Translations under genes and position numbers: made by a program
Shown: piece by piece, positions 42,828-58,484 of the stretch
Position numbering within the stretch: position 1 is the first letter of the stretch
Layout: each line of letters starts with the position of its first letter
NCBI GenBank assembly: GCA_017403825.1
Contig: JAFRDO010000014.1
Location: 629 to 64,628 of the forward strand
Source of the DNA: Kiritimatiellia bacterium
Lineage (GTDB): Bacteria; Verrucomicrobiota; Kiritimatiellia; RFP12; UBA1067
DNA length: 64,000 nt
Direction: 5' to 3'
The notes under the pieces: model-generated
Seen by the model: the letters and a program-made list of their open reading frames with translations, nothing else
The model's database searches: none
What the model was told of the DNA's origin: nothing

Positions 42828-43529
42828 CTACTGCTGCGGCTGGGCCGGCGACTCGTCCGGCAGCTGCTTTGTCACGTCAAGGATCCAGGCGGCATCCTTC
42901 CAGCATGGGTGCTTCGTGTCCTTGATGACCTCGCGCAGCACGGGCAGTTTCACTGCCTCTTCGCGGTTGAGTATGTCGCTGAACACGGTGTCGATAGTCT
43001 CCGGATCCTGGCCCTTGTCCATCAGCACGCCCGCAAGCAGCATGACGTTCTCGTCGGGTATGAGGTTCAGGGCGCGGTGAATGCACTCGTCCTTGCGGTC
43101 GGCGGGAACCTTGCGGAACAGTTCCACGAAGGCGTCGACCTCGGCGAGCGTCGGCGGATCCCCGGACGACGTCTCCATCCACTTGTCCGTCAGCGCGTCA
43201 AACTCCTCGACAATCTTTTCGGCCTCTGCCTCGGCCTTTTCCTCCTCGGTCGGCTCTTCGGCGGGCTCGTCGTCCCCGTCGGCAGCCGCCTTGCCGGCCT
43301 TCGCCCTGGCGGCCCGTGCGCCAGCCTTGCCCTTCTTGCCGGGCGCGACTTCCAGCGGAATGTCGCCCTTGAAGTCGTCCAGCAGCTCCTTGTCGTTCGG
43401 CTCCATACGCTCGAACTCGCGTTCAAGGTCCGCCTGCCCCGTCGCCGGACTGCGGACGGCAGTGCAAATCCACAGCGCCACGGCGGCAAGTGCCACGGCG
43501 ACCAACGTCAATACGGCCAGTTTCTTCAT
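42828..43529 (-). CDS. N-terminally anchored hypothetical protein with acidic/basic linker and helical-repeat C-domain (last gene of the long minus-strand operon)
   Basis: 233 aa, RBS AAGGAGAGG, signal/anchor MKKLAVLTLVAVALAAVALWICTA. No recognisable catalytic motif. Confidence 0.5.
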   Translation of the reverse strand: MKKLAVLTLVAVALAAVALWICTAVRSPATGQADLEREFERMEPNDKELLDDFKGDIPLEVAPGKKGKAGARAARAKAGKAAADGDDEPAEEPTEEEKAEAEAEKIVEEFDALTDKWMETSSGDPPTLAEVDAFVELFRKVPADRKDECIHRALNLIPDENVMLLAGVLMDKGQDPETIDTVFSDILNREEAVKLPVLREVIKDTKHPCWKDAAWILDVTKQLPDESPAQPQQ

Positions 43530-43545
43530 CTTATGCCTCTCCTTG

Positions 43546-44877
43546 TCAGCGGGCGCCGCGCATGAACACGACGGCGGCGAACGTCTTCTTCAGAATCCAG
43601 AGGTCGAGCCAGGGCGACCAGTTTAGTATGTAGTGCACGTCAAGAGCGACACGGCGCACGTAGTCGGTGTTGCTGCGGCCAGACGCCTGCCACAGTCCGG
43701 TTACGCCGGGCTTGACGGACGAGAACGTGGCGTAGTCGTCGCCGTAGTAGTGCACCTCCCCCTCCACGATGGGGCGCGGGCCGACAAGCGTCATGTCGCC
43801 GGCGAACACGTTGAAGAGCTGAGGGAACTCGTCGAGCGACGTCCGGCGCAGGAACCGGCCGAGCGGAGTCACGCGCGGGTCGTCCGCCAGCTTGAAGTTC
43901 GCCTCCCATTCGGCCTTCTTCACCGGGTCGGACGCAAGAATCGCCGCCAAACGGTCGTCCGCGTCAACGTACATCGTGCGGAACTTCCAGACGCGCAGGG
44001 GCCGTCCCCACTTGCCGAGCCTGTTGTGGCGGTAGAACACCGGGCCGCGCGAGGTCAGCTTTATCAGCACGGGGATTATGACGAAGAGCGGCAGGGAGCA
44101 GATGAAGACGAACAGGGCCAGCGACTTGTCAAGCAACCACTTCTCGAACCGAAGAAGACGCATGCGGCGCTGGCTGGCGAACTCGATGCCGCCGCGTCCA
44201 TCCACCGAGGTCGAGCGAGCCCCGGCCAAGGGCAGCGCGCCGGAAGGCGGAATGTACTCTATGTACGAATAGCGCTGCGCGTATTCGGGGTAGCGGGTGC
44301 GGAAATCGGTCATCTCCTCGCACGAGAACAGCACATGCGGCCTGGCGGACGCAGCGACGGCGCGGAATCCCGCGTAGGCGTCATTGTCCAGCGCCACAGA
44401 GAGCCGCCGCACTGCATCCTCAGGCCCGACGACTGCGGCGGGTATGCGAAAGATGCGGAAGCGCGAGATCACAATGCGCACCAGGTCTCGCATCGGCTGC
44501 ACCAGAATGGCGGTGAACACGCCGGAGAACACGGTCACCACGCGGGAAGTCTCCTTGAGCGTCTGGTTGGTCAACGCTATGTAGGCGACCAGGGCCATGT
44601 GCGTAAGGAGCGCCGAAGCGATAAGCCTGCGCATCTCCTCAACCGGCGACACGGGCGCAGCCGGATAGGCGAAGCGGCCCTGATAGAGCCGAAACGCCAC
44701 GTTCACAATGACGAACGCCACGAGCGCCGGCCAGAGCCGCAGGTAGAAAGTCCATCCGTAAAGGTAGCGCCCGACGCCAATGGCCCAGTAAGCCCAGACG
44801 TCGAACGCCCAGACCGCCGCCATCGTCACGACGTCGGTCAGCACGAGAACGAGAACGCGAAGCCTCGCCTCCGTCAC
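43546..44877 (-). CDS. Polyprenyl-phosphate glycosyl-1-phosphate transferase (WbaP/EpsL-type bacterial sugar transferase)
   Basis: The frame is that of ORF 43546..44949. GTG 44877 overlaps the upstream stop (GTGA). N-terminal TM helices and a C-terminal Bac_transf core: RPLRVWKFRTM...[38 protein letters not shown]. Confidence 0.85.
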   Translation of the reverse strand: MTEARLRVLVLVLTDVVTMAAVWAFDVWAYWAIGVGRYLYGWTFYLRLWPALVAFVIVNVAFRLYQGRFAYPAAPVSPVEEMRRLIASALLTHMALVAYIALTNQTLKETSRVVTVFSGVFTAILVQPMRDLVRIVISRFRIFRIPAAVVGPEDAVRRLSVALDNDAYAGFRAVAASARPHVLFSCEEMTDFRTRYPEYAQRYSYIEYIPPSGALPLAGARSTSVDGRGGIEFASQRRMRLLRFEKWLLDKSLALFVFICSLPLFVIIPVLIKLTSRGPVFYRHNRLGKWGRPLRVWKFRTMYVDADDRLAAILASDPVKKAEWEANFKLADDPRVTPLGRFLRRTSLDEFPQLFNVFAGDMTLVGPRPIVEGEVHYYGDDYATFSSVKPGVTGLWQASGRSNTDYVRRVALDVHYILNWSPWLDLWILKKTFAAVVFMRGAR

Positions 44878-46673
44878 TTGCCGCCTCCTATCACGTAGTC
44901 GGTCCAGTTGGGTATGTACAGCTCGGCCCCCTTGACGAGCGTCACCCACTCGGGGTGCGGGCCTTCGCCGTAGACGTCGACGTATCTCGCCGCGAACTCA
45001 CCGAGAAGCACACCCACCCGCGTTACGGCGAAAAGCTCTTTTGGAAAGTCCTTCGGGCCGAACGGAGGAGAAAGGAAGACTATCTCGCCGGCGGAGGGCG
45101 CACGGCCATGGCGGAAGAGCGCGAGATACCGCTCGCCCTGACGGCCAGGCAGCACAAGTCGTCCAACGCGCCCCGGGACGTCCGCCAGGCTGCGGCAGTA
45201 GACGCAGGCCGACACGGCGTTCGACGCCGAGGAAGAGGTCATGTAGTGGCGGCGTATCAGGTTCTGCGTGTAGATTCCGCCAAGGGTTTCGCCGTCATCG
45301 ACTATCCAGACCGACGGCTCCCCCTCGCCTACCGTCACAGTGCCTCCGGCATGGCGGATACGCGGACTGGACGGCCCTACGGCGCGGCAGACGGCATAGA
45401 GCGCGGCAACAGCGACGACGCTGGCGGCGGCGGCAATGCCGAGGGCGGCAATGTAGCCGCGCCAGGCCCTCCATTCGCCACGGCAGAGTCGCCAGGCCAT
45501 AAGGCCGATGAAGGACGCCGGCAGTATCCAAAGCGCAAGCTGCGACAGCATCACGTTGAAGAGCGCGGCGGCGAAGAGCGAAACCCATACCGCGACGCCT
45601 GCGGCCGTGAAGCCGCGCCGGGCATGATGCCAGAGAAGTGCGATTGCCGCGAACCACCCGAGAATCCACAGCCAGCGCCCGGTCCATCCGTAGCCGACCA
45701 GATGCGTGAGATGATCGCTCACGAGCGTCATCTGCCAGGTGTCGCCACCCATCGACTGGTACCAGTGGGAATAGGCCGGCCCTGCCTTTTTTACGCCCCA
45801 GCCGTCTGGCGCATCGGCCATCATCCGCGCACCTGCGACGAAGATGGCGCTGCGGTCGCGTCCCTCGCCGCGACCCTCTATCGTACGGACCAGCCCCTTG
45901 GTGAACCTGGAGGAGCCCTGCGTGGCTACGGCGAACACTCCTGCCAGGACGAGGCAGCCCGCAAGCACCAGCACTCGCTTCAGCACGGGCCGCCCGGCCC
46001 GACGCAGGAACGTCGCCGCGAGAAGCACCGCGAATCCTGCAAGGAACGCCAGCATGCCGCCGCGAGAACCCGTCATGGCTAGGCCAGCTAACGACGCAAG
46101 CATCGAAACCAACCCGACCGACAGCCATACGACGCCACACGAAAGGAACAGCGCCGCGCCGACGAGCGCCGTGCCCGCCAGGAACGCCGCCGCCACATTC
46201 GGACTCCTGAACCAAAGCGAGAAGCGACCGGTCATGCTCCAGATGTCCGTCAGACGGTCAAGACGCTTCTGCATCTTCTCGCGATCCATCTGCTCCGGCT
46301 CGATTCCCCACAGCGAAGCAGGCTTCCCGCCGTATGCCGGCTCGAACGGGTAGGTGATGGAATGCCTGTTCTTGCCGCGCTGGTACGTCACAAGCCGTCC
46401 GTCGACGTACGTGAAGCGCCGGTGCCCAGGCGCCCGCACCACAACCTTGCCGTCCACGGCCTCCGCCGACCATCCGCGCGGCCCGCTGAAGCTCCCCTCG
46501 TCAAGCTGACGGAATTCGCGCAGTTCGCCGTCTGGCCCCATCATGCGGTAGTAGAACGGACAGACAGGCGCGAAATACGTGATTCCGGCAAGGTCAGTTT
46601 CAGACGGCGCGTCCGCAGCCATCGAGACAGCCGCGGACGATACAGCGAAAAGAAGGCTAAGCAGCCGGCGCAT
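44874..46673 (-). CDS. Wzy_C / O-antigen-ligase-family membrane protein with extra N- and C-terminal soluble domains (WaaL or PglL/PilO-like)
   Basis: The frame is that of ORF 44874..46682. ATG 46673 is preceded by AGGGAGGA. Wzy_C-like motifs: LAMTGSRGGMLAF, RSAIFVAGARMMADAPDGWGV, SDHLTHLVGYGWTG. Many TM helices. Confidence 0.65.
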   Translation of the reverse strand: MRRLLSLLFAVSSAAVSMAADAPSETDLAGITYFAPVCPFYYRMMGPDGELREFRQLDEGSFSGPRGWSAEAVDGKVVVRAPGHRRFTYVDGRLVTYQRGKNRHSITYPFEPAYGGKPASLWGIEPEQMDREKMQKRLDRLTDIWSMTGRFSLWFRSPNVAAAFLAGTALVGAALFLSCGVVWLSVGLVSMLASLAGLAMTGSRGGMLAFLAGFAVLLAATFLRRAGRPVLKRVLVLAGCLVLAGVFAVATQGSSRFTKGLVRTIEGRGEGRDRSAIFVAGARMMADAPDGWGVKKAGPAYSHWYQSMGGDTWQMTLVSDHLTHLVGYGWTGRWLWILGWFAAIALLWHHARRGFTAAGVAVWVSLFAAALFNVMLSQLALWILPASFIGLMAWRLCRGEWRAWRGYIAALGIAAAASVVAVAALYAVCRAVGPSSPRIRHAGGTVTVGEGEPSVWIVDDGETLGGIYTQNLIRRHYMTSSSASNAVSACVYCRSLADVPGRVGRLVLPGRQGERYLALFRHGRAPSAGEIVFLSPPFGPKDFPKELFAVTRVGVLLGEFAARYVDVYGEGPHPEWVTLVKGAELYIPNWTDYVIGGGK

Positions 46674-46678
46674 GCGTG

Positions 46679-47413
46679 TCAATCCTCCCTGAACCTCGCC
46701 TCGTACTTAGTGGACTTCTTGACCTTGACCCTATAATCGGTTTTCTTCGAGACAAGCTTGCCATTCGCGTCATACCAGCCGATCAGGCTGCAACCGCGCT
46801 TCGGCTTGGCCGTAAGCGTCACCTTCTTGCCGATCTTCTGCCAGCGCACCTGCACGACTTCGCCGTACTTGTCGCTGACAGTGCCATTCTCGTCGCAGGC
46901 CTTCAGTTTGATCCTCGCATATTTCTTGATGACGGACTTTGCCTTGCTGCGGAAGGATTTGGCCGTCAGCCCGCTGCCGGTAAACACCTTCTTCACCGTC
47001 GGCGACACCGAGCCGCGCGGATTCAGGTAAACGGCGCAGAAAGGATATTTGCGCAGAGTGGAACTTCCGTCCGACTTGGCGAACTCCTTTGACCGCGCTC
47101 CTGCCTTGGTTTTCGTTCCTATGCCAAGCACGAAGACATAGCCGCAGGACTTGCGCCATTCCTCAAAATCCGAAGAGGCTGCTATGTCGTTGCAGAGGGA
47201 TTTGCAATGCCCGCAACCCGGATTCACCCACAGGACGACAAGCGGTACGCCAAGCTTTTCCGCATGTTTCTTGCACTTGGAGAACTGCGTCGACCAGACG
47301 CCAGTCTTCACCGCAGTCGTGGAATAGCTGAGCCCCTCATGCGTCTTCGTGGCACCGGAACCAACGAGACAAAGCCCCGCGCACACGGTGAAAATCAGCG
47401 CTTTGCGGAACAT
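46679..47413 (-). CDS. Secreted thioredoxin-fold protein with CGHC active-site motif plus C-terminal beta-rich domain
   Basis: The frame is that of ORF 46679..47437. ATG 47413 is preceded by AGGAGG. Signal peptide MFRKALIFTVCAGLCLVGSGA. VPLVVLWVNPGCGHCKSL is paralogous to the N-terminal domain of the 1567-aa protein (VPVLVFWANNGCGHCAAT). Confidence 0.6.
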   Translation of the reverse strand: MFRKALIFTVCAGLCLVGSGATKTHEGLSYSTTAVKTGVWSTQFSKCKKHAEKLGVPLVVLWVNPGCGHCKSLCNDIAASSDFEEWRKSCGYVFVLGIGTKTKAGARSKEFAKSDGSSTLRKYPFCAVYLNPRGSVSPTVKKVFTGSGLTAKSFRSKAKSVIKKYARIKLKACDENGTVSDKYGEVVQVRWQKIGKKVTLTAKPKRGCSLIGWYDANGKLVSKKTDYRVKVKKSTKYEARFRED

Positions 47414-47438
47414 GGCAACACCTCCTGGCTGGGACACG

Positions 47439-48362
47439 CTATTCCTCTATGACGTCCGGGTTTTCCTTGCCGTACTGGATTATGTCCTCTCGGGTCTGGA
47501 TCTTGCCGGCGAAGTCGTCGAACACGAATGCCATGTTGTCGCCCAGCGCGTCGATTGCCGTCTGGTTGCCGCTGTCGAGAATGACAAGGGCCGTCTCGAC
47601 CTTGATGGAGTTCGGCATTCCGTTCATCTCAAAGATGAAGGGGTTGAGTATCTGGCCGTCAGTCGTCATATTGACGAGCAGGCCGATGGCTTCGGAAATC
47701 TGCTGCGGCGTGGTGTCAAAATCCCACAGCAGTTCCTGTATCGCCTCGAGCGACACCTCCGCAACCTCCTGGTTCTCGTCCGCCGCGAGCTGGACCAGTT
47801 CTGGCAGCACCTCTAATACGCCGCCTCCGCCACCGCCGCCTTCGCCGTCACCGCCACCGCCGGCAGACTTAAGCGCCTCGACGATCTGACACTTCGCATA
47901 AGACGACACCTTGGCACCCCCGCTCATCTTCGCAAGCAACTTACGGACTGCCGCCATCACGCCTCGGTGATCGAAATTCACCTGAGCGCGACGCATCTCG
48001 GTCAAGATGTCGCGCACAGCCTTCGACATCTCGACAGCGACCTCGCCCTCCAGGGTGAAGTCGATGTCCATGTCAAAGTTCCCCTTCTCGTCATCGAACG
48101 GATTCCAGTCCTCGTCAACCTTGGCATTTTTATTCTTGACCTCGCTTCCAGGCTTCGAAAGGCCCTTCTCGCGACGCTGCTTCGCCGCGATGCGACGGGC
48201 AGTCGCCTTGGAGGCGGGCTTCTCCTCGCGTATGACGCGGGAGCGCAGCACGCGGCCAGGCTTGCCGTCCGGCTCGTCGGCCTTCGGCGCAGACAGCCAC
48301 CAGCCGCCTATGCAAAGGCCGACGAGAACGACCGTCAGGGTTATCAGTTTCCAGAGTTTCAT
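47439..48362 (-). CDS. N-terminally anchored hypothetical protein (basic linker, poly-Gly tract, helical-repeat domain)
   Basis: 307 aa, RBS GGAGAA, anchor MKLWKLITLTVVLVGLCIGGWWL. A GGGGDGEGGGGGGG run is encoded at ~47820..47870. Confidence 0.5.
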   Translation of the reverse strand: MKLWKLITLTVVLVGLCIGGWWLSAPKADEPDGKPGRVLRSRVIREEKPASKATARRIAAKQRREKGLSKPGSEVKNKNAKVDEDWNPFDDEKGNFDMDIDFTLEGEVAVEMSKAVRDILTEMRRAQVNFDHRGVMAAVRKLLAKMSGGAKVSSYAKCQIVEALKSAGGGGDGEGGGGGGGVLEVLPELVQLAADENQEVAEVSLEAIQELLWDFDTTPQQISEAIGLLVNMTTDGQILNPFIFEMNGMPNSIKVETALVILDSGNQTAIDALGDNMAFVFDDFAGKIQTREDIIQYGKENPDVIEE

Positions 48363-48384
48363 CTGTTCTCCGTCATTGTGTCAT

Positions 48385-51300
48385 TCAGTCGGCATAGACC
48401 TCGAACGGGAGCGAGAACGTCCAGGTGCGCACCCCGATCTTGACAGGCTTGACGATCGCGCCGCTGATCAGCACGTCTTCGCCGAGGCCGCCCGCGATGC
48501 CGCTACGCGTGTCGCGGTCGATCGTAAGCACGCCGAAGTGCTCGAAGCCGGCAATCTGCTTCTGCACGCCCTCTGCCTCGCTGGCAATCCATGCCGAGCA
48601 CGATCCCGAAGAGACGCCCGTCGCGCGGTTAAAGGCGATCTTGACGTTGCAGGGGTTGACGCTCGCCACCAGGTCGTACTGCGTCGCGTCGTCCGCTTCG
48701 GCGACAAGCTTCCTGGATACGGCGGCGAACTTGTTGCCGACGAGCGTAACCGGCACCGCGCTCGGCGTGGCCGCATACGCGTAGCCTGCGCCCAGCAGCT
48801 CCGCCGGGAATGCGTTGGGCGCACCGGCCGCGAACGCCTTGGCCTTCGAGTTGTAGTAGCCCTGGAGGTTCGCCAGGAGGTCGTACCATCCGCCGACCGG
48901 GACAAATTCCATGCGCCAGCCCTGTACGCCGTCCTCCGTGGCGGAGGCGTCGTCGGAATTCCAGCAGACCGTCTTCTTGGAATCGACGATGGTCTTGTAT
49001 TTCTTGCCGTCCAGATGGCTCTTGTCGGACTGCATGAACAGATGGAGTTCTGCAGCAAAGCAGCTGGAGGCGTTCGCCTGGTAGACGGGGATTACCATTT
49101 CGTAGCCCGTCTTCGACGACGAGTTAGGCACGACCGCGCAGGCCGTGGCCGACGCCGCGACCGCAGTCTTGTCGGCCAGGAGACCGGCGATCTTCGCCGC
49201 GCCCTTGTTGTCCACCGTGACCGTCAGGTAGCCGTTGCCGGCGGGAACGCCCGCTCCGGGCGCACCGCGGTCGGTTCCATCGACCGCGCCGGCGACGAGC
49301 GCCACCGTGTAGTAGCCGTCGAAGAGGAACGCAGTGTCGAGGTACTTCTGTATCTTGGCGTTGTTGCGGTAGAGCGAGCCGGCATACGAGATGCCGGTCT
49401 GGGCGCCGGCGCCCGAGGCGTCAGGCACGCGAAGCAGCAGGCTGGCCTTGCAGCCCGACTTGGCCCAGTCGGAATACTTGCCGTCGGTCACCGCGACAGT
49501 CAGCTCATTAGTGTACGGCGGCTCCTCGCCGCTGCCGGGCCAGACGTTGACAAGCGTCTTCTTCTTGGCGCCGTCAGAAGTCGTGCCGTCCCACCCCGCG
49601 CCTGCGGTGAACGAATACGTCTTCCCGGCAAGCTGGACCTTTGCGGACATCGACTCCGGCGAAGAGCTGGAGGAAGCGGAGATCGTCAGCGTGACGGCGG
49701 CGAACTCGGGGGCGCCGTTCGTGAGCTGCGTGCCGCTCTCGCGCACCAAGCCGTAGAACGTGCCGATGCGCAGGTTGCTCTTGTCCTCCTTCTTCTGCTT
49801 CGCGGCCTTGTCCTTGTAGACCGACGCGTATGCCGCCGCCGCATCCTTGTACTTCGCCGTGTTCACGATCTTGACAGTCGCCTGCACCGAGGTCTTGTAG
49901 TTCGGGAACGCCGCCTGGACCACGTCCTTCAGCCCGTCGCCGGCGGACGCCGACGAGGCATCCTTCAGCACGACCTTGAACGACAGGTCCTTGCTCTTGA
50001 CAGGAATGGTCTTCGGGACGAGGGCAATCTTGATCTTCTTCTTGCCCTTGTCGCCGTTCTTCCAGCTGACGTAGCCGGAGGCGTTGATGTAGTTGACCCC
50101 TGCCTTCGCCGTTCCCGCCGAGAGGGTGTACTTCACGCGGCACGCGCCCGTCGCCTTCGTGCGGACGGCGGTGACGGTCACGGACGTCGCGCTGTCCTTG
50201 GCCTTGAACGTCGCATTGCTGAACTTCACCACGCCGAGGTCCTCGTAGCGGCCCTTCAACTTGTAGGCTCCGCCGTCGTTCGTGGAGGTCTTGTGCGAGA
50301 CGATGAGGTAGTACTTCTTAGACGACTTGGGCAACAGCAGCCGCGTCACGGAAGTCACCTTCTTCGCGTAGTACGTGCCGTTCTCGTTCTTGATGGTGAA
50401 CACCTGGTCGCCCTTGCCGTTGCCGTAGAGGCTGAACGTGTAGTGATAACCCTTCTTCGAGTAGAAGGAGAAGCAGTCGTTCTTGTCTGTCTTCCAGAGC
50501 GTGTGCTTCGTCTGCGTGGTGTACTTCGACTTCAGCGTCCATGCCGTCGCCTTCTTCGTCGAGTCGTCCTTCGGGTCCCACTTGTCGGTGTAGTAGATGT
50601 CGCTGACTTCCGTGGTCTTGCCGTTGGAAACCGTGGCGCTTGCGTTCTTGGGCGTCGTGTAGCCCTTGACCGACGTGAAGTACAGGGTCTTCTTGCCGGC
50701 CGACATGATGACGCTCACGCCGCTCGCGTACTGGGTGCCCTTCTTGGAGAGCATCCACTTGCCGCTCGCGCCCTTGATCGTCACCTTTAGCGCACCGCAC
50801 TTCTTGCCGTTAGAGAAGTAGCCGACCGAATGAATGCGGATCGGCTTGTAGTCGAGACCCTCGCCGGCGGCCGGACGGACGACCACGTAGTACATTCCGT
50901 CGACGTTCGCCTTGAACGTGAACGTCTTGCCGGGCGCGAACGTCACGGCCTTGACCAGCGTCTTGTCAGACACCTTGCCGCTGTAGATCTGCGCGGCAAG
51001 CCGGTTGGTCTCGGTGTTCGCCGCATCGGCGAAGCTCGTTGCCAGCGCATATGTGACGCCGCTTGCCGCGCCAATCACGCACTTGGCCGACCAGCAGTCC
51101 TTCCCCAGCTTGAAGGCCGAGCTCCCGGCGGCGTCCGCCGCCTGCGGCTTCGAGTCCTTCGTGCCGGGAACAGGCGAGAGCTTCACGGTCTTGACCGTCG
51201 TCGAAACGGTGGAGGCCTTTATGCTGACCTTGTGGTACTTCGGCGTAAACTCGTCAAAGACCCCGTGGTCCTCGCAGACGCCCACGTAGTAGGTCGCCGA

Positions 51301-52494
51301 CTTCGACGGAGTGAACACGACGCGAACGTCCGCGCTGCCGCTGCCCTTGGAGCGGTTCGTCTTGATGACGGTGCCCTTGGAGTCATAGAGATACGCTACT
51401 ATCGGCACCTCGTTGGTCGCCCCGCTCGTCTCCACCACATAGTTCTTGCCCTTCTTGGCGGCTATCGAGAAGAGCTGCTGGTCGGCTACCATGTCAAAGT
51501 AGCCGGACCCGGGCTTGTTCAGGTAACCGGGCTTGAAATCCACGGACTTGCCGAGCGCAAGAGCCGTGGGCTTGTGCTTGGCCGGCGTCCTCGCCTTCTC
51601 CAGAAGGAAGCGCAGCTTGCCCTTGGCCTTGTAGCCCTTCGAGGACCTGATGCGCATCAGTACCGTCTGGTCGCCGTCCGGAATGAACGAAATCGCCTGG
51701 TTGTTCGCCTTGGCCCACGTCTTGTAGGGACCAAGTATGCCGAGGTTGAGGTTGTACTCCTCGTCGAACGAGAGCACGTTAGACGCCGTGCCGTCCAGAG
51801 TGCCGAAGCGATAGCACGAACCGCCCTTGAGCACGACCTTCACGTAGTAGAACTCGCCCATAAAGCCGTCCTTGAGGGTCACGGTCTGGGCCTTGTTCTT
51901 CGGCTTGATCACGAGCGGATTGGCCGCAACGCCCTTCGGTATCTTGTTCGCCTGCACGTAGTTGAGCGTCGCAGTCGCCCCATTGTCGCCCTCGACAAGA
52001 ATGTAGTACGTCCAGCTGTTGGGCGTCTTGGACTTGCCCCAGTCGCCCCAGTTGTCGTCAGAGACGATGTCCGTCCAGGCCGAGGTGTCCCAGTCGTCGT
52101 TCCAGTCGTTGGACCATTCCTTGCCCGTGACGAGCCAGCGCGTCTCGATGCCGCAGTCTACGCTGTCGAAATGGGCGAGCGGCTCGTTGGTGTTCCAGTC
52201 GGTGGACTCCATCCCGTAGGCCGTGCGGATCCTGATGTTGCTGTTCGTGGAGTTGACGCCGGTAAGCCACACGGTGTACGCCTTGCCCTTGGACAGCGTC
52301 ATCTTGTAGTAGCACCGGTAGACGGTCTTATTCTGATCGTCCTTGGTCTTGTAGAGCTTGACCGTCTTCTTCTGCACGGAAGACTTGGCCGACAGGCCCA
52401 GCGCGTACTTCTCCTTCACGGGATTGCTCGCGCCGAAGACCGAACCCGCAAGACACAGCACGCCAAGCGCCGCCGTCACAATCTGTTTCATCAT
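48385..52494 (-). CDS. Giant secreted protein (about 1369 aa) built of repeated beta-sandwich (PPC/pre-peptidase-C-like) modules and a Calx-beta-like module
   Basis: The frame is that of ORF 48385..52500. ATG 52494 is preceded by AAGGAG. Signal peptide MMKQIVTAALGVLCLAGSVFGA. Recurrent K-G-x-x-Y-x-(V/F) motifs. Calx-beta-like stretch VTVTAVRTKATGACRVKYTLSAGTAKAGVNYINASGYVSWKNGDKGKKKIKIAL. Confidence 0.75.
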   Translation of the reverse strand: MMKQIVTAALGVLCLAGSVFGASNPVKEKYALGLSAKSSVQKKTVKLYKTKDDQNKTVYRCYYKMTLSKGKAYTVWLTGVNSTNSNIRIRTAYGMESTDWNTNEPLAHFDSVDCGIETRWLVTGKEWSNDWNDDWDTSAWTDIVSDDNWGDWGKSKTPNSWTYYILVEGDNGATATLNYVQANKIPKGVAANPLVIKPKNKAQTVTLKDGFMGEFYYVKVVLKGGSCYRFGTLDGTASNVLSFDEEYNLNLGILGPYKTWAKANNQAISFIPDGDQTVLMRIRSSKGYKAKGKLRFLLEKARTPAKHKPTALALGKSVDFKPGYLNKPGSGYFDMVADQQLFSIAAKKGKNYVVETSGATNEVPIVAYLYDSKGTVIKTNRSKGSGSADVRVVFTPSKSATYYVGVCEDHGVFDEFTPKYHKVSIKASTVSTTVKTVKLSPVPGTKDSKPQAADAAGSSAFKLGKDCWSAKCVIGAASGVTYALATSFADAANTETNRLAAQIYSGKVSDKTLVKAVTFAPGKTFTFKANVDGMYYVVVRPAAGEGLDYKPIRIHSVGYFSNGKKCGALKVTIKGASGKWMLSKKGTQYASGVSVIMSAGKKTLYFTSVKGYTTPKNASATVSNGKTTEVSDIYYTDKWDPKDDSTKKATAWTLKSKYTTQTKHTLWKTDKNDCFSFYSKKGYHYTFSLYGNGKGDQVFTIKNENGTYYAKKVTSVTRLLLPKSSKKYYLIVSHKTSTNDGGAYKLKGRYEDLGVVKFSNATFKAKDSATSVTVTAVRTKATGACRVKYTLSAGTAKAGVNYINASGYVSWKNGDKGKKKIKIALVPKTIPVKSKDLSFKVVLKDASSASAGDGLKDVVQAAFPNYKTSVQATVKIVNTAKYKDAAAAYASVYKDKAAKQKKEDKSNLRIGTFYGLVRESGTQLTNGAPEFAAVTLTISASSSSSPESMSAKVQLAGKTYSFTAGAGWDGTTSDGAKKKTLVNVWPGSGEEPPYTNELTVAVTDGKYSDWAKSGCKASLLLRVPDASGAGAQTGISYAGSLYRNNAKIQKYLDTAFLFDGYYTVALVAGAVDGTDRGAPGAGVPAGNGYLTVTVDNKGAAKIAGLLADKTAVAASATACAVVPNSSSKTGYEMVIPVYQANASSCFAAELHLFMQSDKSHLDGKKYKTIVDSKKTVCWNSDDASATEDGVQGWRMEFVPVGGWYDLLANLQGYYNSKAKAFAAGAPNAFPAELLGAGYAYAATPSAVPVTLVGNKFAAVSRKLVAEADDATQYDLVASVNPCNVKIAFNRATGVSSGSCSAWIASEAEGVQKQIAGFEHFGVLTIDRDTRSGIAGGLGEDVLISGAIVKPVKIGVRTWTFSLPFEVYAD

Positions 52495-52560
52495 CTTCAA
52501 TCTCCTTGATCTTGTCTTGTCAGCCTGTCAGCCAATCTTCTTTCCACACGGTCTCCTGCG

Positions 52561-55500
52561 TCACTTCTCCGGGAATGCAGCCCCGGAGTAGATTCGCCCG
52601 CCGGAGAGCGCCGTGTCCTTGCTCGACTTGCCGACCTGGTCCTTGAACGAGAACGCGCCGCAGATGAACGGCATCTGAAGCTCCTCGCCCTCGGAGCAGT
52701 CGCACTCCGCGCTCCAGCCAGTCAAAAGCACCCCGTTCCAGGTTGCATCGATGTAGCTGGTCTTGCCGCCGGCAACGTAGTTGAGGCGGAGCGAACCGCT
52801 CAGGATTCCCGTGGCGCGGTCGATCGACAGCTTGAACTTGTTGGTCGCCTTCGTCACGCTGATCGAGTTCTTCCCGACCGAGACCGTCTGCACAGGAATC
52901 GCCTGCGCCTTGCCGCGGCCAGCATAACGGTCGTAGCCAGCGTACTCAGGAACCTCTACCTGGAGCTTCATCGCGGAGGGGTTCATCGACGACTCCGTGC
53001 AGCAGTCCTTCAGGCTCTTCGCCGCGTCGTAGAGACCGCCCATGAGGTGAATGTCCATGCTGTAGCCCGTGCCGTTGTCGCCACTGTGCGTCCACGTGCC
53101 GAGCGGCAGGACGGGCGAGAGGTCCGGGCAGCCGAGCAGGCTCCTGTTGCCGCCGTTGTCGCCGGCCGCGTTGGCCTTGATCTCCGCCACGATCGAGAAA
53201 CGGTCGGCGGAAAGCTTCTTGAAGATCGGCAGGTATGCGTAGCCGCCGCGGCCGACCCAGTTGTTCACGCCCTTGGACAGGACGGCCGAACCGGAGATCG
53301 CCTGGCCGTTGGGCAGCTTGCCCGCCCACGTCATCTTGCCCTTAGAGGCAGCCTTAGAGGTCAGCTTCAGCGACACGTAACCGTAGCCGATGGGCGCCGC
53401 GAACTTATCGTTCGTCGGCTGCACGATCTCGCCGGTGAATGCACCGTAGACACCGTCGCCGCGGTAGTACGGCGTTCCGGACGGCACGATCGCGCCATTG
53501 TAGATGCCGACCCACGACTTGGCCGACGCGCTGCTGCTCCAGACCGTTCCGGAGGACTTCGCCGTCAGATCCTGATCCTTGAACGCCTTGTCTATGACAG
53601 TCGCCTCGACACGCCCGTTGGAGTATGCCTTCACCTCCAGGGCGTAGCCTTCCTTGGACGGCGTCAGAGTCGCCGTCAGCGTGCCGTCGGCGGCGGAAAG
53701 GTCCTTCGCGTTCCAGCTCTTGGACGAGAACGAGACCGTGCCGCCGTTGCAGGCGTACTTCGCGCTCACCTTGCCGGAGCGCGGGATCGTCACGTCCAGC
53801 GTGCCGGCAAGCCGCTTCGGGTCGCCGCCGGAAAGAACCATCAGGCTCGAAAGCGTCCGCGACGTCTTCACCGCAGTGTTGGAAAGCTTGCCGTACGTCT
53901 TGTCGGACGGCTTGACCGTGGTCGGATCGACGACCCGGAAGCTGACCTTGACCGGCATTCCCTTCACCAGCTTCTTGCTGCGCGTCGCGCATGCGCGGAA
54001 GTAGGCGGTGTAGGAACCGGCCGCCGTCGGAATGCCCGTCAGCTTCAGCTTCTGCCCGCTCACCTTCGCCTTGATGCCCTTCGGGAGAGATCCCTTGAAC
54101 AGCTCGACGGAAAGCACGTCGCCCTTCTGGATATAGGCAGGATCGAACGCAACGGACGCGCTGCACGTCGAATACGTCACCATCTTAATCTGGGCGATCT
54201 TGTCCGAGACGAAGGCAGGCGCCTTGTCGTCAACGACCACGATGACTATCGACTTCGCGTTCTTGTCGGCCTTGAAGCTGCCAGACGTGGCGTTCAGCGA
54301 CACCGTGGCCTTCTTCTCAGCCTTGGGCAAGCCCTTCACCAGAACCGCCTTGTCGGCGTAGTCGTCGGCGCCCCAGCCCACTTCCGACCCAAGTATGGTC
54401 TCGCCGGAGAACGAGACCGTGCTGACGGACGACTTGAGCCCGATGCTGTTGGCGAGCGGCTTGCCGTCGTTGGAACGGTGGAGCGTCATGGTGACGCCCG
54501 CGCTGCGCCGCGCGTAGACTGTCGTGTCGAACGTGGCGGTTGGCTCTGTGCCGGATATCGACACTGTGCTCTGGGTCTTTCCAGACTCGTCCTTGACCTT
54601 CAGCGTGTACGACGACTTGCCGAGCGTAGCGTCGCCGTTGTCGCTCGCCAGGCCTTCGAGGGCAAGCACGATTTGTCCGTCGCCGAAGTACTTGGACAGC
54701 TCCGCGCTCTTCTCGACCGTAATCACGAGGCTCTTGGGCTCGTTGTCGCCGTCCAGCCACGTCAGCTGCTTCGACATGAAGCCCCACTCGTCGTCAATGG
54801 CGAAGCGTGGCAGCAGCTTCGTCTTGTGGTCGTAGTAGAACGTGGACTTGTCGACATCCACGACGACGGTCGCCGAAACCGAACCGGAAACGCCGCCGCT
54901 GCGCATGACCGTCACCGTCCACTTGCCCACGCTCTCGCCAATGCCGTCTTTCGGCTCGTTGTCGTTGAAGGCGACCTTCGACGGCACCCACTTCTGGTAC
55001 CCGATTTCGCCGTCGGCCGACGCAACAAGCGCGACGTCGCCGTTCACGGTAGCCTCGAACATTCCGTCATCCCTCTTCTTAAGCCCTTCGGGAAGCGGAT
55101 CCGTCACGATGCCGGTGATGCGGTAGACCTTGCCGGCGTCAACGGACATATGGATGGAAGAGCCCTCGGCAAGAGGCACGGACGCGAAGTCCTCCTGCGG
55201 GTCAAGGGACTTAACGGAAGCCGTCAGAGTGAACTCCGCAAAGTGATTCGCGGTTGCGCTCCCGATGGCGAATGCAGCAGAAGCGATGTCCGCACCGGCA
55301 ACCCGCAGATAGCACGTGCCCACTTCGTCGAACTCCCCGAGAAGCGCGGTGTTGGCATTGATTGCAGTCGTTACGGGCTTGCCGACAAGCTCGAACGCCC
55401 CGTCCTTCTCAATCATGAACTGCGCTACGACCTTGGCATCGGACGAGCCGGTGATCGTGACGTTCACGTCCGCCGCGCCCTTGAAGTTCGTCAGCTTGAA

Positions 55501-57264
55501 CGTATCGCGCATGTCGGCGTGGCAGAGACGTCCTTCCACGGCCGTCCTGGTGCCGACCGGCAGTTCAGTGGTCTTGGCGGAAGGCGTGTTGTTACCGATT
55601 TCGTTCGCGTCAGCCGTCCCGGCTTCGGCGTCGGCAATCGCCAGCATCTCCTCGAAACGCTTGATGAAGTTGTTGAAGTTCGCCTGGTCGGCCTTCATCG
55701 GACTCGCCACGGCGCCAAAGTACGTCAGGCGCGCAGCAACGGTACCGTCGCTCTTCAACAGCACGAAGATCGGAACGTTGGTGCGATTGGGGTTTTTGTC
55801 CTCGTTGCGCGGGTCGTCCGCTCCGTAGAACAGGTGGAAACCACCCTGCTCAGGCGTCTTGTAAGCCAGGTCGTGGAACTTCTTGAGCGTCGCGAGCGCA
55901 TCCGCGTCCGAAATGCCGTTGCGCGTCAGGTAACCGAGACCGCTGCGTACCACAGCATTGGTCAGCTTGGCCGGCGCACCGGACGCCGGATACTCCCATG
56001 CGCGCGCCAGCGTCGTCGCATAGGCATCTCTCGAGAAAAGCGTCGGGGACTCGCGGTCGTCGACGGTGGGCCCCTTGTAGTTCGGAACGTCCATCGCGAC
56101 GAGCGCCACGTTCTTCGACTTCGCCCACGCCTGGAAGCGGTTCTTGCCGGTCGCATCCTTGAGGTCTAGGAAGTTGCGGTCGGTGTTTGCGCAGTCGGGG
56201 CACCAAAGCGATCCCTGCACGCTTACGAGCGTATAAGCTTTCGTCGAGCCGGTAGTCGCCGCCGCCTTGCCCGCCGCGGACGCGCCGCCGGCCTTCGCCT
56301 TCACCAGCGCCTTGGCCGCATCGATGTCGGCCGTCCACTCGCCGAATTCGGCACCCTTCCACCGCGGATTGCCTGTGCCGTTCTCCTTCTCCACGAAATA
56401 GATGGTGTTCCTGTACTTCGCCGCAGACTCGCCGTTAATGACCGCGATGAGCTTGTCGCCGGACGCGAGACCGGACGGAATCGCCACCACGAGATCAAGC
56501 ACGGTCGCGCCCTTCGTCCAGCTGGCGGTGTACGTCTTGACAAGGTTGGCGTCTTTCACCGCATTCTTGTAGAGCTTCACGGAATCCGTTCCCACGACCG
56601 ACTTCTTGGCACTGCTGCGCGTCATCCTGAGCGCCACTTTCTTCGTCGACGCATCCACCTCATAACGGTTCCCGTCCGAAGCGTCCGTCAACTCAAACCA
56701 CCCGCCGACGGCCGGGGTGTAGCCCTTCAGGATGCTCTCGACCTTCTTTATGAACGTAGGGGCATCCATGCCGTTGCCGGAGAATGCGCCGCGCCACTTA
56801 TTGCTGTATGACTTACTCTCGTAGTCGTATTTTTTTCCGTCACCCCAGTAGACGCCAACATACGGGAACGATGTACTGCCACCATCACGTTTTGCAACCT
56901 GTTTGGCTACAGCGGACTCGTTCTTGGCAGGCCCCGGATAGCCGCCACAAGAAAAGACCATGTAAATCTGGTACTTCTTCTGCCAGTTGGTGAACGTCTT
57001 GGTGCACAGTTCAACCTCCGTTGCCGCGCAGTGACCGCACCCGTTGTTCGCCCAGAAGACAAGCACGGGGACATCCTCCTCCAACGCCTGCTTCATCGCC
57101 TTGTCCAGCTGGCTGGTCCATTCGCCGCGAACGATAGCCCCCTTCGAATTATAAGGTATCTTCGCCCCCTTAGAATTCTCAAAGACAGAATCCGTTGCCG
57201 CAATGACCGTCAACCCCGCCATCGCGGCAAGGCAGACTACCACTTTCTTTAGCATTTCCTTCAT
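52561..57264 (-). CDS. Giant secreted protein (1567 aa): N-terminal CGHC thioredoxin-fold domain, second CxxC (CPDC) thioredoxin-like domain, many beta-sandwich modules
   Basis: The ATG overlaps the PPIase stop (ATGA). Signal peptide MKEMLKKVVVCLAAMAGLTVIAA. WANNGCGHCAAT (residues 71-82) and SLWCPDCANT (~residue 355). It shares a C-terminal module with the 1369-aa protein (KLSIDRATGILSGSL vs KIAFNRATGVSSGSC). Confidence 0.75.
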   Translation of the reverse strand: MKEMLKKVVVCLAAMAGLTVIAATDSVFENSKGAKIPYNSKGAIVRGEWTSQLDKAMKQALEEDVPVLVFWANNGCGHCAATEVELCTKTFTNWQKKYQIYMVFSCGGYPGPAKNESAVAKQVAKRDGGSTSFPYVGVYWGDGKKYDYESKSYSNKWRGAFSGNGMDAPTFIKKVESILKGYTPAVGGWFELTDASDGNRYEVDASTKKVALRMTRSSAKKSVVGTDSVKLYKNAVKDANLVKTYTASWTKGATVLDLVVAIPSGLASGDKLIAVINGESAAKYRNTIYFVEKENGTGNPRWKGAEFGEWTADIDAAKALVKAKAGGASAAGKAAATTGSTKAYTLVSVQGSLWCPDCANTDRNFLDLKDATGKNRFQAWAKSKNVALVAMDVPNYKGPTVDDRESPTLFSRDAYATTLARAWEYPASGAPAKLTNAVVRSGLGYLTRNGISDADALATLKKFHDLAYKTPEQGGFHLFYGADDPRNEDKNPNRTNVPIFVLLKSDGTVAARLTYFGAVASPMKADQANFNNFIKRFEEMLAIADAEAGTADANEIGNNTPSAKTTELPVGTRTAVEGRLCHADMRDTFKLTNFKGAADVNVTITGSSDAKVVAQFMIEKDGAFELVGKPVTTAINANTALLGEFDEVGTCYLRVAGADIASAAFAIGSATANHFAEFTLTASVKSLDPQEDFASVPLAEGSSIHMSVDAGKVYRITGIVTDPLPEGLKKRDDGMFEATVNGDVALVASADGEIGYQKWVPSKVAFNDNEPKDGIGESVGKWTVTVMRSGGVSGSVSATVVVDVDKSTFYYDHKTKLLPRFAIDDEWGFMSKQLTWLDGDNEPKSLVITVEKSAELSKYFGDGQIVLALEGLASDNGDATLGKSSYTLKVKDESGKTQSTVSISGTEPTATFDTTVYARRSAGVTMTLHRSNDGKPLANSIGLKSSVSTVSFSGETILGSEVGWGADDYADKAVLVKGLPKAEKKATVSLNATSGSFKADKNAKSIVIVVVDDKAPAFVSDKIAQIKMVTYSTCSASVAFDPAYIQKGDVLSVELFKGSLPKGIKAKVSGQKLKLTGIPTAAGSYTAYFRACATRSKKLVKGMPVKVSFRVVDPTTVKPSDKTYGKLSNTAVKTSRTLSSLMVLSGGDPKRLAGTLDVTIPRSGKVSAKYACNGGTVSFSSKSWNAKDLSAADGTLTATLTPSKEGYALEVKAYSNGRVEATVIDKAFKDQDLTAKSSGTVWSSSASAKSWVGIYNGAIVPSGTPYYRGDGVYGAFTGEIVQPTNDKFAAPIGYGYVSLKLTSKAASKGKMTWAGKLPNGQAISGSAVLSKGVNNWVGRGGYAYLPIFKKLSADRFSIVAEIKANAAGDNGGNRSLLGCPDLSPVLPLGTWTHSGDNGTGYSMDIHLMGGLYDAAKSLKDCCTESSMNPSAMKLQVEVPEYAGYDRYAGRGKAQAIPVQTVSVGKNSISVTKATNKFKLSIDRATGILSGSLRLNYVAGGKTSYIDATWNGVLLTGWSAECDCSEGEELQMPFICGAFSFKDQVGKSSKDTALSGGRIYSGAAFPEK

Positions 57265-58484
57265 TTTCTTCCTTGTTTTGTTGTTTTAGAATCAGTTTTG
57301 TTTCCCTTTTCCTTCAAATCTGCTTTCGGCTGCTTGACTTCGGCACTCTTTTTTGCCGCTCCACCCTTCTTCGCCGCTCCCTTAGAACGCGATTGTTTGC
57401 CAGAATCTACAGCCTTGACGCCTTTTTTCCCCGATTTGTCCTTCTTGTGCGCGTTCTTCTTCGTCTTCGGCTTTACAACATCAGCCGCCTTGACAAGGGC
57501 CGCAATCTCCTTGGACAGAACCTGCTGCTCGTGCTGCTGGCGTTTCCTCTTCAAAAGCGTATCTTCGTCAACGATCTCCTGAAACATCGGCAACCTGAAG
57601 TAGATACGTGAAAGAGCATAGTCATCGCCCTTCTTGGCATTCACCTTCAAGATCATAAGCCCGTTGTCGCCCTCGATTGGAGGGGAGAATTGACCTGGCT
57701 GAAGTTTCTGGGCCCATTTGACGAGATCCTCGTCCGGCTCAAGCTGCTGAAGGCCAAGCGTGCCCCAGTCTCCTCCCTCCTTCGCCTCTCGCGGCACTTC
57801 CGAGAACTGCCGTGCGACCAGCTTGAAGTCCTCCCCAGCCTTCAGCTTCTCCCACGCATTAGTCGCCCGTGCGTAAACAACCGCATTCGTAAGCGCCATC
57901 TCGGCGTTGTACGCAGTAATTCTCTTTATCTGCTCCTTCGCGTAATTTGCCGGCAGGTTCGGCGGATTCTTCTCAAGAATACGCTGACGGACGGCGTCCT
58001 CCATCGCCTGTATGCGCACAAATTCATCCATTGCCGCCGCGAACGACCCGACTTTGCGGCGCAGATTGTCGTAGGTCATGCGACCTCCGAATCCCGACAG
58101 AAACTTCTTCCTCGCCTTTTCAATCGCCGCCTTGTCAACCTTGATCTTCTCATTCCTGACAAACTCTTCGAATACGACCTCACGGACGAACATCTTCGGC
58201 AAAGCCGACCTAAGACGCTTGCGAAGCTTCGGTATGTCGCTCAACGTCATCTTGGGATTCGCAATCGTGCTAACCTTGACAAGCATCTCCACCCGCTCGT
58301 TCAGGTTCGTCGAATGCAATTCACGCCCGTTGACCGTAATAACAACGCGGTTACGCACCGGCTTTTCGTCCTTCGCCGACTTGTCGGCAGCCGAAGATGC
58401 AGGCTTAACGTCAGGCTCGCCGTTGTCCCAACAGCCAACCAGCACCAGCGCAAGCGACGCCAGAATATACCACTTGATTTTCAT
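57261..58484 (-). CDS. SurA/PrsA-like lipoprotein peptidyl-prolyl isomerase (parvulin domain) with ~70-aa lysine-rich C-terminal tail
   Basis: Lipobox LVLVGC. SurA_N-like helical region. Parvulin-like GGDWGTLGLQQLEPD...FSPPIEGDNGLMILKV. The tail reads KPKTKKNAHKKDKSGKKGVKAV...KTTKQGRK. Confidence 0.7.
   Translation of the reverse strand: MKIKWYILASLALVLVGCWDNGEPDVKPASSAADKSAKDEKPVRNRVVITVNGRELHSTNLNERVEMLVKVSTIANPKMTLSDIPKLRKRLRSALPKMFVREVVFEEFVRNEKIKVDKAAIEKARKKFLSGFGGRMTYDNLRRKVGSFAAAMDEFVRIQAMEDAVRQRILEKNPPNLPANYAKEQIKRITAYNAEMALTNAVVYARATNAWEKLKAGEDFKLVARQFSEVPREAKEGGDWGTLGLQQLEPDEDLVKWAQKLQPGQFSPPIEGDNGLMILKVNAKKGDDYALSRIYFRLPMFQEIVDEDTLLKRKRQQHEQQVLSKEIAALVKAADVVKPKTKKNAHKKDKSGKKGVKAVDSGKQSRSKGAAKKGGAAKKSAEVKQPKADLKEKGNKTDSKTTKQGRK

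Follow-up and report, generated by a model that had tools for sequence, protein, structure and literature searches.

A recurrent gene system joining a long-form Wzy_C protein to thioredoxin-fold secreted proteins in gut and rumen Kiritimatiellae-like bacteria

Genes, junctions and boundaries of the cluster

The subject of this work is a gene cluster on the minus strand of a 64,000-nt stretch of DNA (hereafter the window; G+C content ~62%) from a Kiritimatiellia bacterium (GenBank assembly GCA_017403825.1, contig JAFRDO010000014.1, positions 629 to 64,628). The cluster belongs to a recurrent multi-gene system, so far undescribed, of gut and rumen Kiritimatiellae-like bacteria, the parts of which are a cysteine-rich secreted protein (g0), a lipoprotein peptidyl-prolyl isomerase (PPIase) of the parvulin type, secreted proteins that combine thioredoxin-fold (Trx) domains with a shared C-terminal domain (CTD), membrane-anchored helical proteins, a long form of a Wzy_C membrane protein and, sometimes, a WbaP-type phosphoglycosyl transferase (PGT). 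The repeated unit consists of g0, the PPIase and at least one Sec-exported protein with one or more N-terminal CxxC Trx-fold domains and the CTD, and in the window it is expanded to a pair of giant proteins. The original prediction described eight co-directional genes with tight junctions, and the listing of open reading frames (ORFs) in the window bears this out: eight minus-strand ORFs, g1 to g8, span 42828-58484, with gaps of at most 60 nt. The domain assignments made at that time are likewise upheld by Pfam and NCBIfam, in which no model covers g0, g4, g8 or the CTD. Absent from that earlier list was g0 (58597-59403), the ninth same-strand gene of the conserved cluster. In gene order, the features are as follows.

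58597-59403, minus strand: g0, a 268-aa secreted protein with a signal peptide and 19 Cys (7.1%); first gene of the cassette
58546-58573, minus strand: terminator-like hairpin of 12 pairs, 8 of them G-C, followed by a T run; directly 3' of the g0 stop
58496-58524, minus strand: promoter-like site TTGTCA-17-TATAAT, a resemblance that consists of 11 matches to the 12 consensus positions
57261-58484, minus strand: g1, a 407-aa lipoprotein PPIase of the parvulin type (SurA/PrsA-like) with a Lys-rich C-terminal tail
52561-57264, minus strand: g2 (giant 1), a 1567-aa secreted protein with two Trx-fold domains, beta-rich middle domains and an all-beta C-terminal region
48385-52500, minus strand: g3 (giant 2), a secreted protein of 1371 aa from a TTG start or 1369 aa from an ATG, with PPC and Calx-beta domains (Pfam) and the CTD
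47439-48362, minus strand: g4, 307 aa, anchored in the membrane at its N-terminus and bearing an acidic HEAT-like helical domain; no Pfam family
46679-47437, minus strand: g5, a 252-aa secreted protein with a CGHC Trx-fold domain and an InlB B-repeat (Flg_new_2), without the CTD
44874-46682, minus strand: g6, a 602-aa long-form Wzy_C membrane protein; translation probably starts at the ATG at 46673
43546-44949, minus strand: g7, a 467-aa large polyprenyl-phosphate hexose-1-phosphate transferase of the WbaP/EPS type
42828-43529, minus strand: g8, 233 aa, an acidic helical protein with a membrane anchor, closing the cluster; no Pfam family

Going from g1 to g8, neighbouring genes overlap by 4 nt (g1/g2), are separated by 60, 22 and 1 nt (g2/g3, g3/g4 and g4/g5), overlap by 4 nt (g5/g6) and by up to 76 nt (g6/g7), and lie 16 nt apart (g7/g8). 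The figure for g6/g7 is an upper bound, since the start codon of g7 is uncertain (gene calls in its relatives give 438-441 aa). Between g5 and g6, the likelier start of g6, the ATG at 46673, is preceded by a Shine-Dalgarno-like GGGAGGA and would leave a 5-nt gap. Downstream, the cluster borders on a convergent metallophosphoesterase gene (41256-42809, plus strand) lying 19 nt from the end of g8, and upstream, beyond g0, on a divergent GH20 gene; an Rfam scan of 42000-60000 gave no match.

The hairpin and the promoter-like site between g0 and g1 suggest separate transcription of g0, which, judging from these sequence elements, may thus be transcribed apart from g1-g8. The hairpin is strong and resembles a textbook intrinsic terminator. 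In the predicted g1 promoter, only 11 nt separate the -10 hexamer from the g1 ATG, so that a g1-g8 mRNA starting from it would be nearly leaderless, and the two elements would be compatible with an abundant, separately terminated g0 transcript followed by such a nearly leaderless one. Among the homologues of g0 (n=41), none carries a name or a Pfam family. The PPIase g1, which has a canonical LVGC lipobox, is recognised by the Rotamase model of Pfam (51 bits against a cut-off of 21.7), with a SurA_N_3 match that is weak and below cut-off (16.7 bits) and matches to PrsA-type NCBIfam equivalog models that are weak and far below theirs.

The first Trx-fold domain of g2 carries CGHC (aa 39-148) and the second CPDC (aa 300-452), and the protein passes the Thioredoxin_7 model of Pfam (29.9 bits against a cut-off of 27). 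The g2 family comprises at least 198 proteins; the 120 listed are all near full length (~1300-1650 aa), and each of the two CxxC motifs is kept in 119 of these 120, the first with widely varying xx residues and the second as CPDC in 105 and CHDC in 13. The Trx-fold domain of g5 is 31% identical over 143 aa to the first one of g2 (E 2e-16), of which it is a paralogue by sequence. Both g2 and g5 are classed as Trx-fold CxxC proteins by sequence, and their redox activity is putative. In the original prediction, the CGHC thioredoxin figured as a separate maturation factor, a role that is weakened because g2 itself carries two conserved CxxC domains, to one of which g5 is paralogous.

At their C-termini, the two giants share the CTD, which has a motif of the type NPxxLK(L/I)S(Y/F)x(R/K)xTGxxxGSF...G(V/L). 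A BLASTP comparison of g2 with g3 finds only weak similarity (E 0.055); a CTD profile from distant loci (see below) aligns with the C-terminus of the g3 family at an hhalign probability of 96.5% (E 7e-10). The C-terminal 329 aa of g2 (52564-53550, minus strand) were modelled with AlphaFold2 (AF2) as one compact all-beta unit (pLDDT 93.2, pTM 0.91). When this model was compared with the PDB by Foldseek, no close neighbour was found above a TM-score of 0.27, the matches up to that value being to tandem beta-barrels (Fsa2/Phm7, TbpB/LbpB, HphA and BF2706); as modelled, the region may combine beta-barrel or beta-sandwich domains in a new way. Pfam and NCBIfam searches with g0, with CTD-only proteins from other loci and with the C-termini of g2 and g3 returned nothing above noise, the only hints being a lipocalin-like GH43_C match (E 0.07) and a weak match to HEAT_2. 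The CTD model of the type IX secretion system (T9SS; TIGR04183) was not among the NCBIfam matches, of which g2 had none and g3 only one, weak and unrelated.

As for the PGT, g7 contains a C-terminal Bac_transf domain (203 bits in Pfam) preceded by hydrophobic N-terminal segments; it passes the EPS_sugtrans model TIGR03025 (304.4 against a cut-off of 295.55) and stays below cut-off for the WbaP model TIGR03022 (343 against 403). Elsewhere in the window (7867-8031, plus strand), between two histidine-kinase genes, lies a fragment of ~57 aa that is 54% identical to g7 residues 343-399 (E 4e-17) and resembles the remnant of a second PGT gene. A paralogous relationship between the two anchored helical proteins g4 and g8 was considered and dropped, as they show no BLASTP similarity and the HEAT-like HMM (hidden Markov model) from distant loci matches g4 and not g8; one relative of g4 gives a weak HEAT_2 match.

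Conservation of the system across genomes

The closest homologues of the cluster come from gut and rumen metagenomes and from metagenome-assembled genomes (MAGs) labelled Kiritimatiellae, the best species-representative match being Kiritimatiellae RGIG5820 from sheep ileum (locus L009), with a g6 of 91% identity. Relatives whose Wzy_C proteins are 57%, 69% and 91% identical keep the order giant 1, giant 2, g4, g5, Wzy_C, PGT and g8, and the contig of the 57% relative also carries g0 and the PPIase ahead of giant 1. Thus, the nine-gene set is conserved within the clade, and the grouping originally proposed reflects co-conservation rather than chance. Orthologues of g8 are found in L001, L003 and L009, and g4 homologues follow the giants in L001, L003, L007 and L008. 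Wherever g3 occurs, it is paired with g2 (L001, L003, L005-L009 and L022). Beyond the clade, four distant giant loci, in which giant 1 is 32-40% identical to that of the window (L005, from NCBI GCA_964386385.1; L006, from JGI; L007; and L008), share a core of g0, PPIase, giant 1 and giant 2, joined by a g4 homologue in two of the four. Giant C10 (streptopain-like) peptidases with an Inhibitor_I69 prodomain and Flg_new repeats were also seen downstream of the giant-pair cluster in two independent loci, ~8 kb past the cluster end in L001 (21465-21788) and just past an M28 peptidase in L006 (19766-24529), and none is present in the window.

A genome scan, in which each species was represented by one genome, yielded 41 loci with relatives of g6, falling into two classes. 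The long forms (~585-600 aa) possess the N-terminal beta domain and, at 28-35% identity, occur in ten further species, all of them rumen or gut MAGs labelled by their submitters as Kiritimatiellae, Verrucomicrobia, Lentisphaerae or 'uncultured bacterium'. The short forms (~445 aa) consist of the transmembrane (TM) core and the C-terminal domain only, and are found in Chthoniobacterales, Terrimicrobiaceae, Verrucomicrobiales and others; both forms coexist in the genomes RUG10619 and RUG572. To describe the neighbourhoods, a custom HMM for each window family was run on the six frames of each locus, and the analysis was repeated with the window sequences excluded (leave-out HMMs).

In all ten distant long-form loci, a Trx and/or CTD gene ends close upstream of the Wzy_C gene, at a distance that ranges from a 1-nt overlap to ~480 nt. 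The other neighbours are g0, PPIase, CTD-only and HEAT-like genes, usually arranged in g0-PPIase-Trx/CTD cassettes, and a typical order would read g0, PPIase, Trx/CTD, Wzy_C, CTD-only, HEAT-like anchored, g0, Trx/CTD (~606 aa), and so on. L022 has its Wzy_C gene immediately after the giant 1/giant 2 pair, which is nearly the arrangement of the window. Directly downstream of Wzy_C, approximately seven of the ten distant loci have a gene for a CTD-only secreted protein of 157-176 aa (L010-L026; for example, L013 6416-6889 and L015 5135-5617; in L016 it is one gene further), a position that the PGT occupies in the window clade, which has no CTD-only gene there. The identity of these families with those of the window is supported by the leave-out HMMs, which match g0 over its full length (E 2e-16; 28-30% identity to the gene preceding the PPIase in the distant loci), g1 (4e-42), the two Trx domains of g2 (2e-26 and 1e-9) and its CTD (2e-7), g4 (8e-7) and g5 (6e-22). 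The PPIase is kept in every cassette.

The PGT behaves somewhat differently. Only in the clade of the window does it adjoin the Wzy_C gene; in three of the ten distant long-form loci (L010, L011 and L015) it closes the same-strand cluster 4-9 kb downstream, and none was found in the 30 short-form loci. Accordingly, the link of the long-form Wzy_C to the Trx/CTD proteins, the PPIase and g0 is robust and deeply conserved, and that to the PGT is recurrent but looser. Judged from the four distant giant-pair loci, the Wzy_C/PGT module would look like a mere clade-specific add-on, a reading that was rejected in the light of the deep Wzy_C-Trx/CTD adjacency shown by the genome scan.

The short forms keep other company. 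Their 30 loci gave one stray Trx match only, and in Verrucomicrobiota a recurring set of genes surrounds them (L017-L049; for example, L024 3472-12381), encoding a TM protein of 172 aa and a helical protein of 656 aa, together with a fused ABC transporter, either one or two alpha/beta-hydrolase-like proteins, the short-form Wzy_C itself, a rhodanese and MauE/DoxX. This neighbourhood represents a second system, likewise undescribed, with that enzyme core at its centre.

That the genes of the window do not form a functional unit at all, being independent secreted and envelope genes which are co-directional by chance, is very improbable in view of these data. The hairpin and promoter-like site do divide g0 from g1, and g4 and g8 are without known function; nevertheless, the junctions are tight or overlapping, with Shine-Dalgarno coupling, the order and content are kept over deep divergence, and the leave-out HMMs find the same families in all distant loci.

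The long-form Wzy_C protein and what the system may do

The assignment of g6 rests on the Wzy_C family of Pfam, which matches it at 36.1 bits (cut-off 31.7) and was found in all 19 close members scanned, with a best E-value of 2.9e-12. Its predicted layout comprises a signal peptide, a periplasmic beta domain (~aa 36-108), eight TM helices (~aa 161-435) and a periplasmic alpha/beta domain (aa 442-602), as derived from an AF2 model of medium confidence (pLDDT 69.6) together with the distribution of Arg/Lys-rich loops. With their positive charge, the loops spanning aa 230-242, 353-360 and 405-419 agree with a topology in which both extra domains are periplasmic, and it is therefore predicted from the model that the Wzy_C loop and the two extra domains face the periplasm, where the latter could meet secreted proteins.

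All 39 sequences of long and short forms share two arginines, R207 and R277, and 32 of them, that of the window included, have H324. These residues were equated with R215/R288/H338 of Escherichia coli WaaL and R224/R298/H349 of PglL (listed in PMC3643930), the R215 correspondence resting on the alignment of the TGSRGG and TQTRAT motifs, and those of R288 and H338 on an alignment with the structure 7TPG and a by-eye alignment of motifs. The active site of g6 is thus apparently intact as far as its residues tell. A profile of the 39 long and short forms led to one solved relative, WaaL of Cupriavidus metallidurans (7TPG/7TPJ), by a weak match (E 1.1e-4 for 7TPG) over ~110 residues that include the SRGG/TRGA motif. 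This widened profile alone reached 7TPG: a profile of the close family had no match among the PDB sequences and, when aligned by hhalign with WaaL of E. coli K-12, agreed in the SRGG motif region alone and without significance. NCBIfam gave no match for g6 of the window, including for the repeat-unit polymerase model TIGR04370, and weak matches occur in its relatives, to TIGR04370 in 8 of 19 (best 4.5e-7), to IctB in 7, to WsfD in 4 and to TuaE in 2.

The original prediction proposed classifying this protein against WaaL, PglL, PilO and Wzy. Its placement in the Wzy_C family holds, and the WaaL/PglL triad is kept, but the motif peculiar to PglL is absent and no placement with any of the four was obtained; by its sequence, g6 is a member of the Wzy_C superfamily in a separate subfamily, and it fits none of the classes WaaL, PglL, PilO and Wzy. 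All genomes in which this subfamily was found here bear the labels Kiritimatiellae, Lentisphaerae or Verrucomicrobia (Planctomycetes-Verrucomicrobia-Chlamydiae, or PVC, group). In a profile search of 1.84 billion cluster representatives (50% identity), 343 relatives reached E<=1e-30; of the top 150, almost all are full-length (~540-640 aa); the long form is thus a sizeable uncharacterised family.

Taken together, sequence, modelling and analogy suggest that g6 transfers sugar onto co-encoded proteins, which we consider the best reading of the system, if a tentative one whose probability falls a little short of even. According to it, g7 would charge undecaprenyl phosphate with a hexose-1-phosphate on the inner side of the membrane, and the lipid-linked sugar, possibly after extension, would be flipped by an enzyme encoded elsewhere. 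The Arg-Arg-His site of g6, of the WaaL/PglL type, would then move the sugar from undecaprenyl pyrophosphate to a periplasmic acceptor, resulting in protein O-glycosylation or in glycan-mediated anchoring to the surface. The likeliest acceptors would be the co-encoded Trx/CTD proteins g2 and g3, and perhaps g0, because the adjacency of Trx/CTD genes is invariable, the neighbourhood is not of the lipopolysaccharide (LPS) type and g6 has two extra periplasmic domains, which may serve acceptor recognition. Meanwhile, g1 would act as a periplasmic foldase or holdase that folds or escorts the very large exported proteins, and the Trx domains would be cargo and not a maturation factor, probably engaged in extracytoplasmic thiol-disulfide exchange, plausibly with g0, as suggested by the constant pairing of the Trx proteins with this Cys-rich protein. 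Two precedents support sugar transfer: O-oligosaccharyltransferase genes adjoin the gene of their target protein in 21 of 31 cases (PMC3643930), and S-layer glycosylation clusters pair the WbaP homologue WsaP with the Wzy_C transferase WsaB (PMC2943079).

Several observations count against such a transfer. In g6 relatives of 52-69% identity, which form a sister subclade of the window clade, the putative catalytic residue 324 is Gln (7 of the 39 sequences), with the Arg pair unchanged. PglL_A (PF15864), the motif that sets PglL apart from WaaL (PMC3643930), was found in none of the 19 members even at E<=5, and neither were other Wzy-related Pfam families. The g6 model has eight TM helices after the signal peptide, against 12 in WaaL, and Foldseek with the full model (pLDDT 69.6) returned nothing from the PDB at E<=0.001, so that WaaL was not recovered. 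As had been stated originally, Pfam and NCBIfam recognise neither a flippase nor a polymerase, a chain-length regulator or a further glycosyltransferase in the cluster (42828-59403). In seven of the ten distant long-form loci, the PGT is not within the available flanks, or the contig ends first; in the four distant giant loci L005-L008, neither Wzy_C nor PGT lies in the DNA covered (10 kb on each side or to the contig end), so that the glycan module is not an obligatory neighbour of the giants. Finally, the neighbours of the short forms (alpha/beta-hydrolase-like protein, ABC transporter, rhodanese and MauE/DoxX) hint at a role not obviously tied to glycans.

Some of the evidence would suit a role of g6 and g7 in the synthesis or ligation of a glycan of the envelope, be it LPS O-antigen, capsule or exopolysaccharide. 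In that case g6 would be a ligase of the WaaL type or a polymerase of the Wzy type, the giants would not be substrates of g6 and g7, and the adjacency would reflect a shared envelope function or co-regulation alone. The Pfam family is named 'O-antigen ligase', WaaL is the sole solved relative, TIGR04370 and TuaE match weakly in relatives, g7 passes the EPS_sugtrans model, and the giant pair occurs without a nearby Wzy_C or PGT. Nonetheless, this explanation is rather unlikely: Trx/CTD adjacency holds in 10 of 10 species at ~30% identity, no LPS-type neighbourhood (LPS-core, Wzx, Wzz or glycosyltransferase genes) was recognised around Wzy_C in the window or in the ten distant loci, the two extra conserved periplasmic domains are foreign to both WaaL and Wzy, and g6 of the window itself lacks the TIGR04370 match.

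A further alternative holds that the long-form Wzy_C is no glycan transferase but a scaffold, a transporter-like protein (compare IctB) or a thiol-redox partner of the CxxC proteins, with the PGT as a passenger. The replacement of His324 by Gln across the whole sister subclade would agree with this, as would the weak IctB-family matches in 7 of 19 members, the redox-associated rhodanese and MauE/DoxX flanking the short-form paralogues, the fact that the long-form neighbours are all CxxC proteins, and the occurrence of a PGT in the available flanks of only three of ten distant long-form lineages. Yet both arginines are kept in 39 of 39 sequences and the histidine in 32 of 39, including the window, and the PGT stands at the cluster end, on the same strand, in three independent distant lineages and at none of the 30 short-form loci, all of which makes a non-glycan role decidedly improbable.

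Sugar transfer could also be part of something broader, namely a PVC-specific sorting and attachment of surface proteins. The CTD would mark CxxC exports, including the giants, the long-form Wzy_C would use its two additional domains in the periplasm to recognise the CTD and would join these exports to a lipid-linked sugar or glycolipid, and the Trx domains would cross-link abundant g0 into a disulfide-bonded envelope layer. Such a scheme, which we regard as quite unlikely, would be functionally analogous to T9SS-CTD anchoring with anionic LPS (A-LPS) or to S-layer glycosylation, evolutionarily independent of either, and its g0 layer would be reminiscent of the chlamydial cysteine-rich outer-membrane complex. 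Returning to sugar transfer onto the co-encoded proteins, it retains from the maturation line put forward in the original prediction the co-conservation of the genes and the link of Wzy_C to secreted proteins; what did not stand in the form proposed are the role given to the thioredoxin, the likeness to PglL and the dependence of the giants on the glycan module.

Two other loci of the window deserve mention. At 3938-17156 (plus strand), four consecutive genes encode hybrid histidine kinases (HisKA-HATPase-receiver), two of which (11206-14292 and 14289-17156) have an amino-acid-permease-like membrane domain fused at the N-terminus; among the four, one has a GAF domain and one a weak solute-binding-protein domain. 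At 28931-34488 (minus strand), a GT2 chitin-synthase-like glycosyltransferase gene (32941-34488) lies directly upstream of one for a 1373-aa tetratricopeptide repeat (TPR) protein (28931-33052), the two ORF calls overlapping by ~110 nt, and a further TPR protein of 1075 aa is encoded at 23162-26389. The 28931-34488 region may be a synthase-type polysaccharide locus unrelated to the cluster.

Novelty and comparison with known systems

The enzyme classes involved are all known, and a Wzy_C transferase encoded beside its protein target is an established idea. What appears to be new is the system as a whole, together with the long-form Wzy_C architecture, the Trx/CTD family with its giants, and g0. 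The databases searched hold no informative names for g0, the Trx/CTD giants or the long-form Wzy_C, the relatives of g6 being called just 'O-antigen ligase family protein', and a literature search on O-antigen ligases or thioredoxin surface proteins of Kiritimatiellae found no relevant paper. Kiritimatiellae are abundant in rumen and hindgut communities and have barely been studied there, and to our knowledge nothing is known of how their cell surface is constructed. If the Wzy_C protein acts on its neighbours, it would represent a novel type of O-antigen-ligase-like transferase, one directed at proteins and equipped with acceptor-binding domains of its own, which would be of interest to glycoengineers, and would provide the first evidence in the phylum for dedicated glycosylation or anchoring of surface proteins. 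The giants, for their part, would be unusual as extracellular multi-domain thiol-disulfide oxidoreductases in strict anaerobes.

With DsbA/PDI-like oxidoreductases, the system shares secreted Trx-fold domains with a conserved CxxC, which in the window includes CGHC, the classical PDI active-site motif. There is no redox partner of the DsbB or DsbD type in the cluster, however, and the Trx domains are here N-terminal parts of beta-rich proteins of 400-1600 aa that have the CTD in common, their xx residues being widely variable. A functional parallel is offered by the T9SS of Porphyromonas gingivalis, in which secreted proteins share a folded beta CTD and an LPS-type pathway including WbaP and WaaL is needed for their attachment to the surface. 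The analogy goes no further than function, since the CTD described here is another domain, belonging to no Pfam family, and neither T9SS genes nor matches to T9SS CTD models were found, the window also lacking a PorU-like sortase.

Regarding WaaL (E. coli; C. metallidurans, 7TPG), the equivalents of R215, R288 and H338 are present in g6, and WaaL is the sole solved structure detected by a family profile. In contrast to WaaL, g6 is without the first ~4 TM helices, carries extra N- and C-terminal domains and has no LPS-core neighbourhood. The PglL/PilO O-oligosaccharyltransferases (Neisseria PglL, the Acinetobacter PglL-ComP pair, and PilO with pilin in Pseudomonas aeruginosa) have in common with g6 the Wzy_C domain and the Arg-Arg-His set of the periplasmic loop, and an enzyme of the PglL type would be expected to accept a lipid-linked monosaccharide supplied by a PGT alone. 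As in those systems, the gene adjoins co-directional genes for secreted proteins, which are candidate acceptors (PMC3643930). The differences are that g6 lacks PglL_A (PF15864), has 8 TM helices in place of ~12-13 and two extra periplasmic globular domains, and is accompanied by Trx-fold/CTD proteins instead of pilins.

Finally, the slg clusters of Geobacillus stearothermophilus and Paenibacillus alvei (WsaP/WsfP with WsaB/WsfB) likewise place a WbaP-like and a Wzy_C-type transferase together, near the gene of an abundant surface protein. They also contain a helical-repeat accessory, provided by the TPR protein WsaA or by a TPR tail on WsfB, with which the HEAT-like g4 and g8 flanking g5-g7 may be compared (PMC2943079). 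The present cluster differs from them in having no chain-building glycosyltransferases, nucleotide-sugar genes or Wzm/Wzt exporter, and also in its host, which is a diderm bacterium of the PVC group, and in its candidate acceptors, which are Trx-fold proteins with CxxC motifs.

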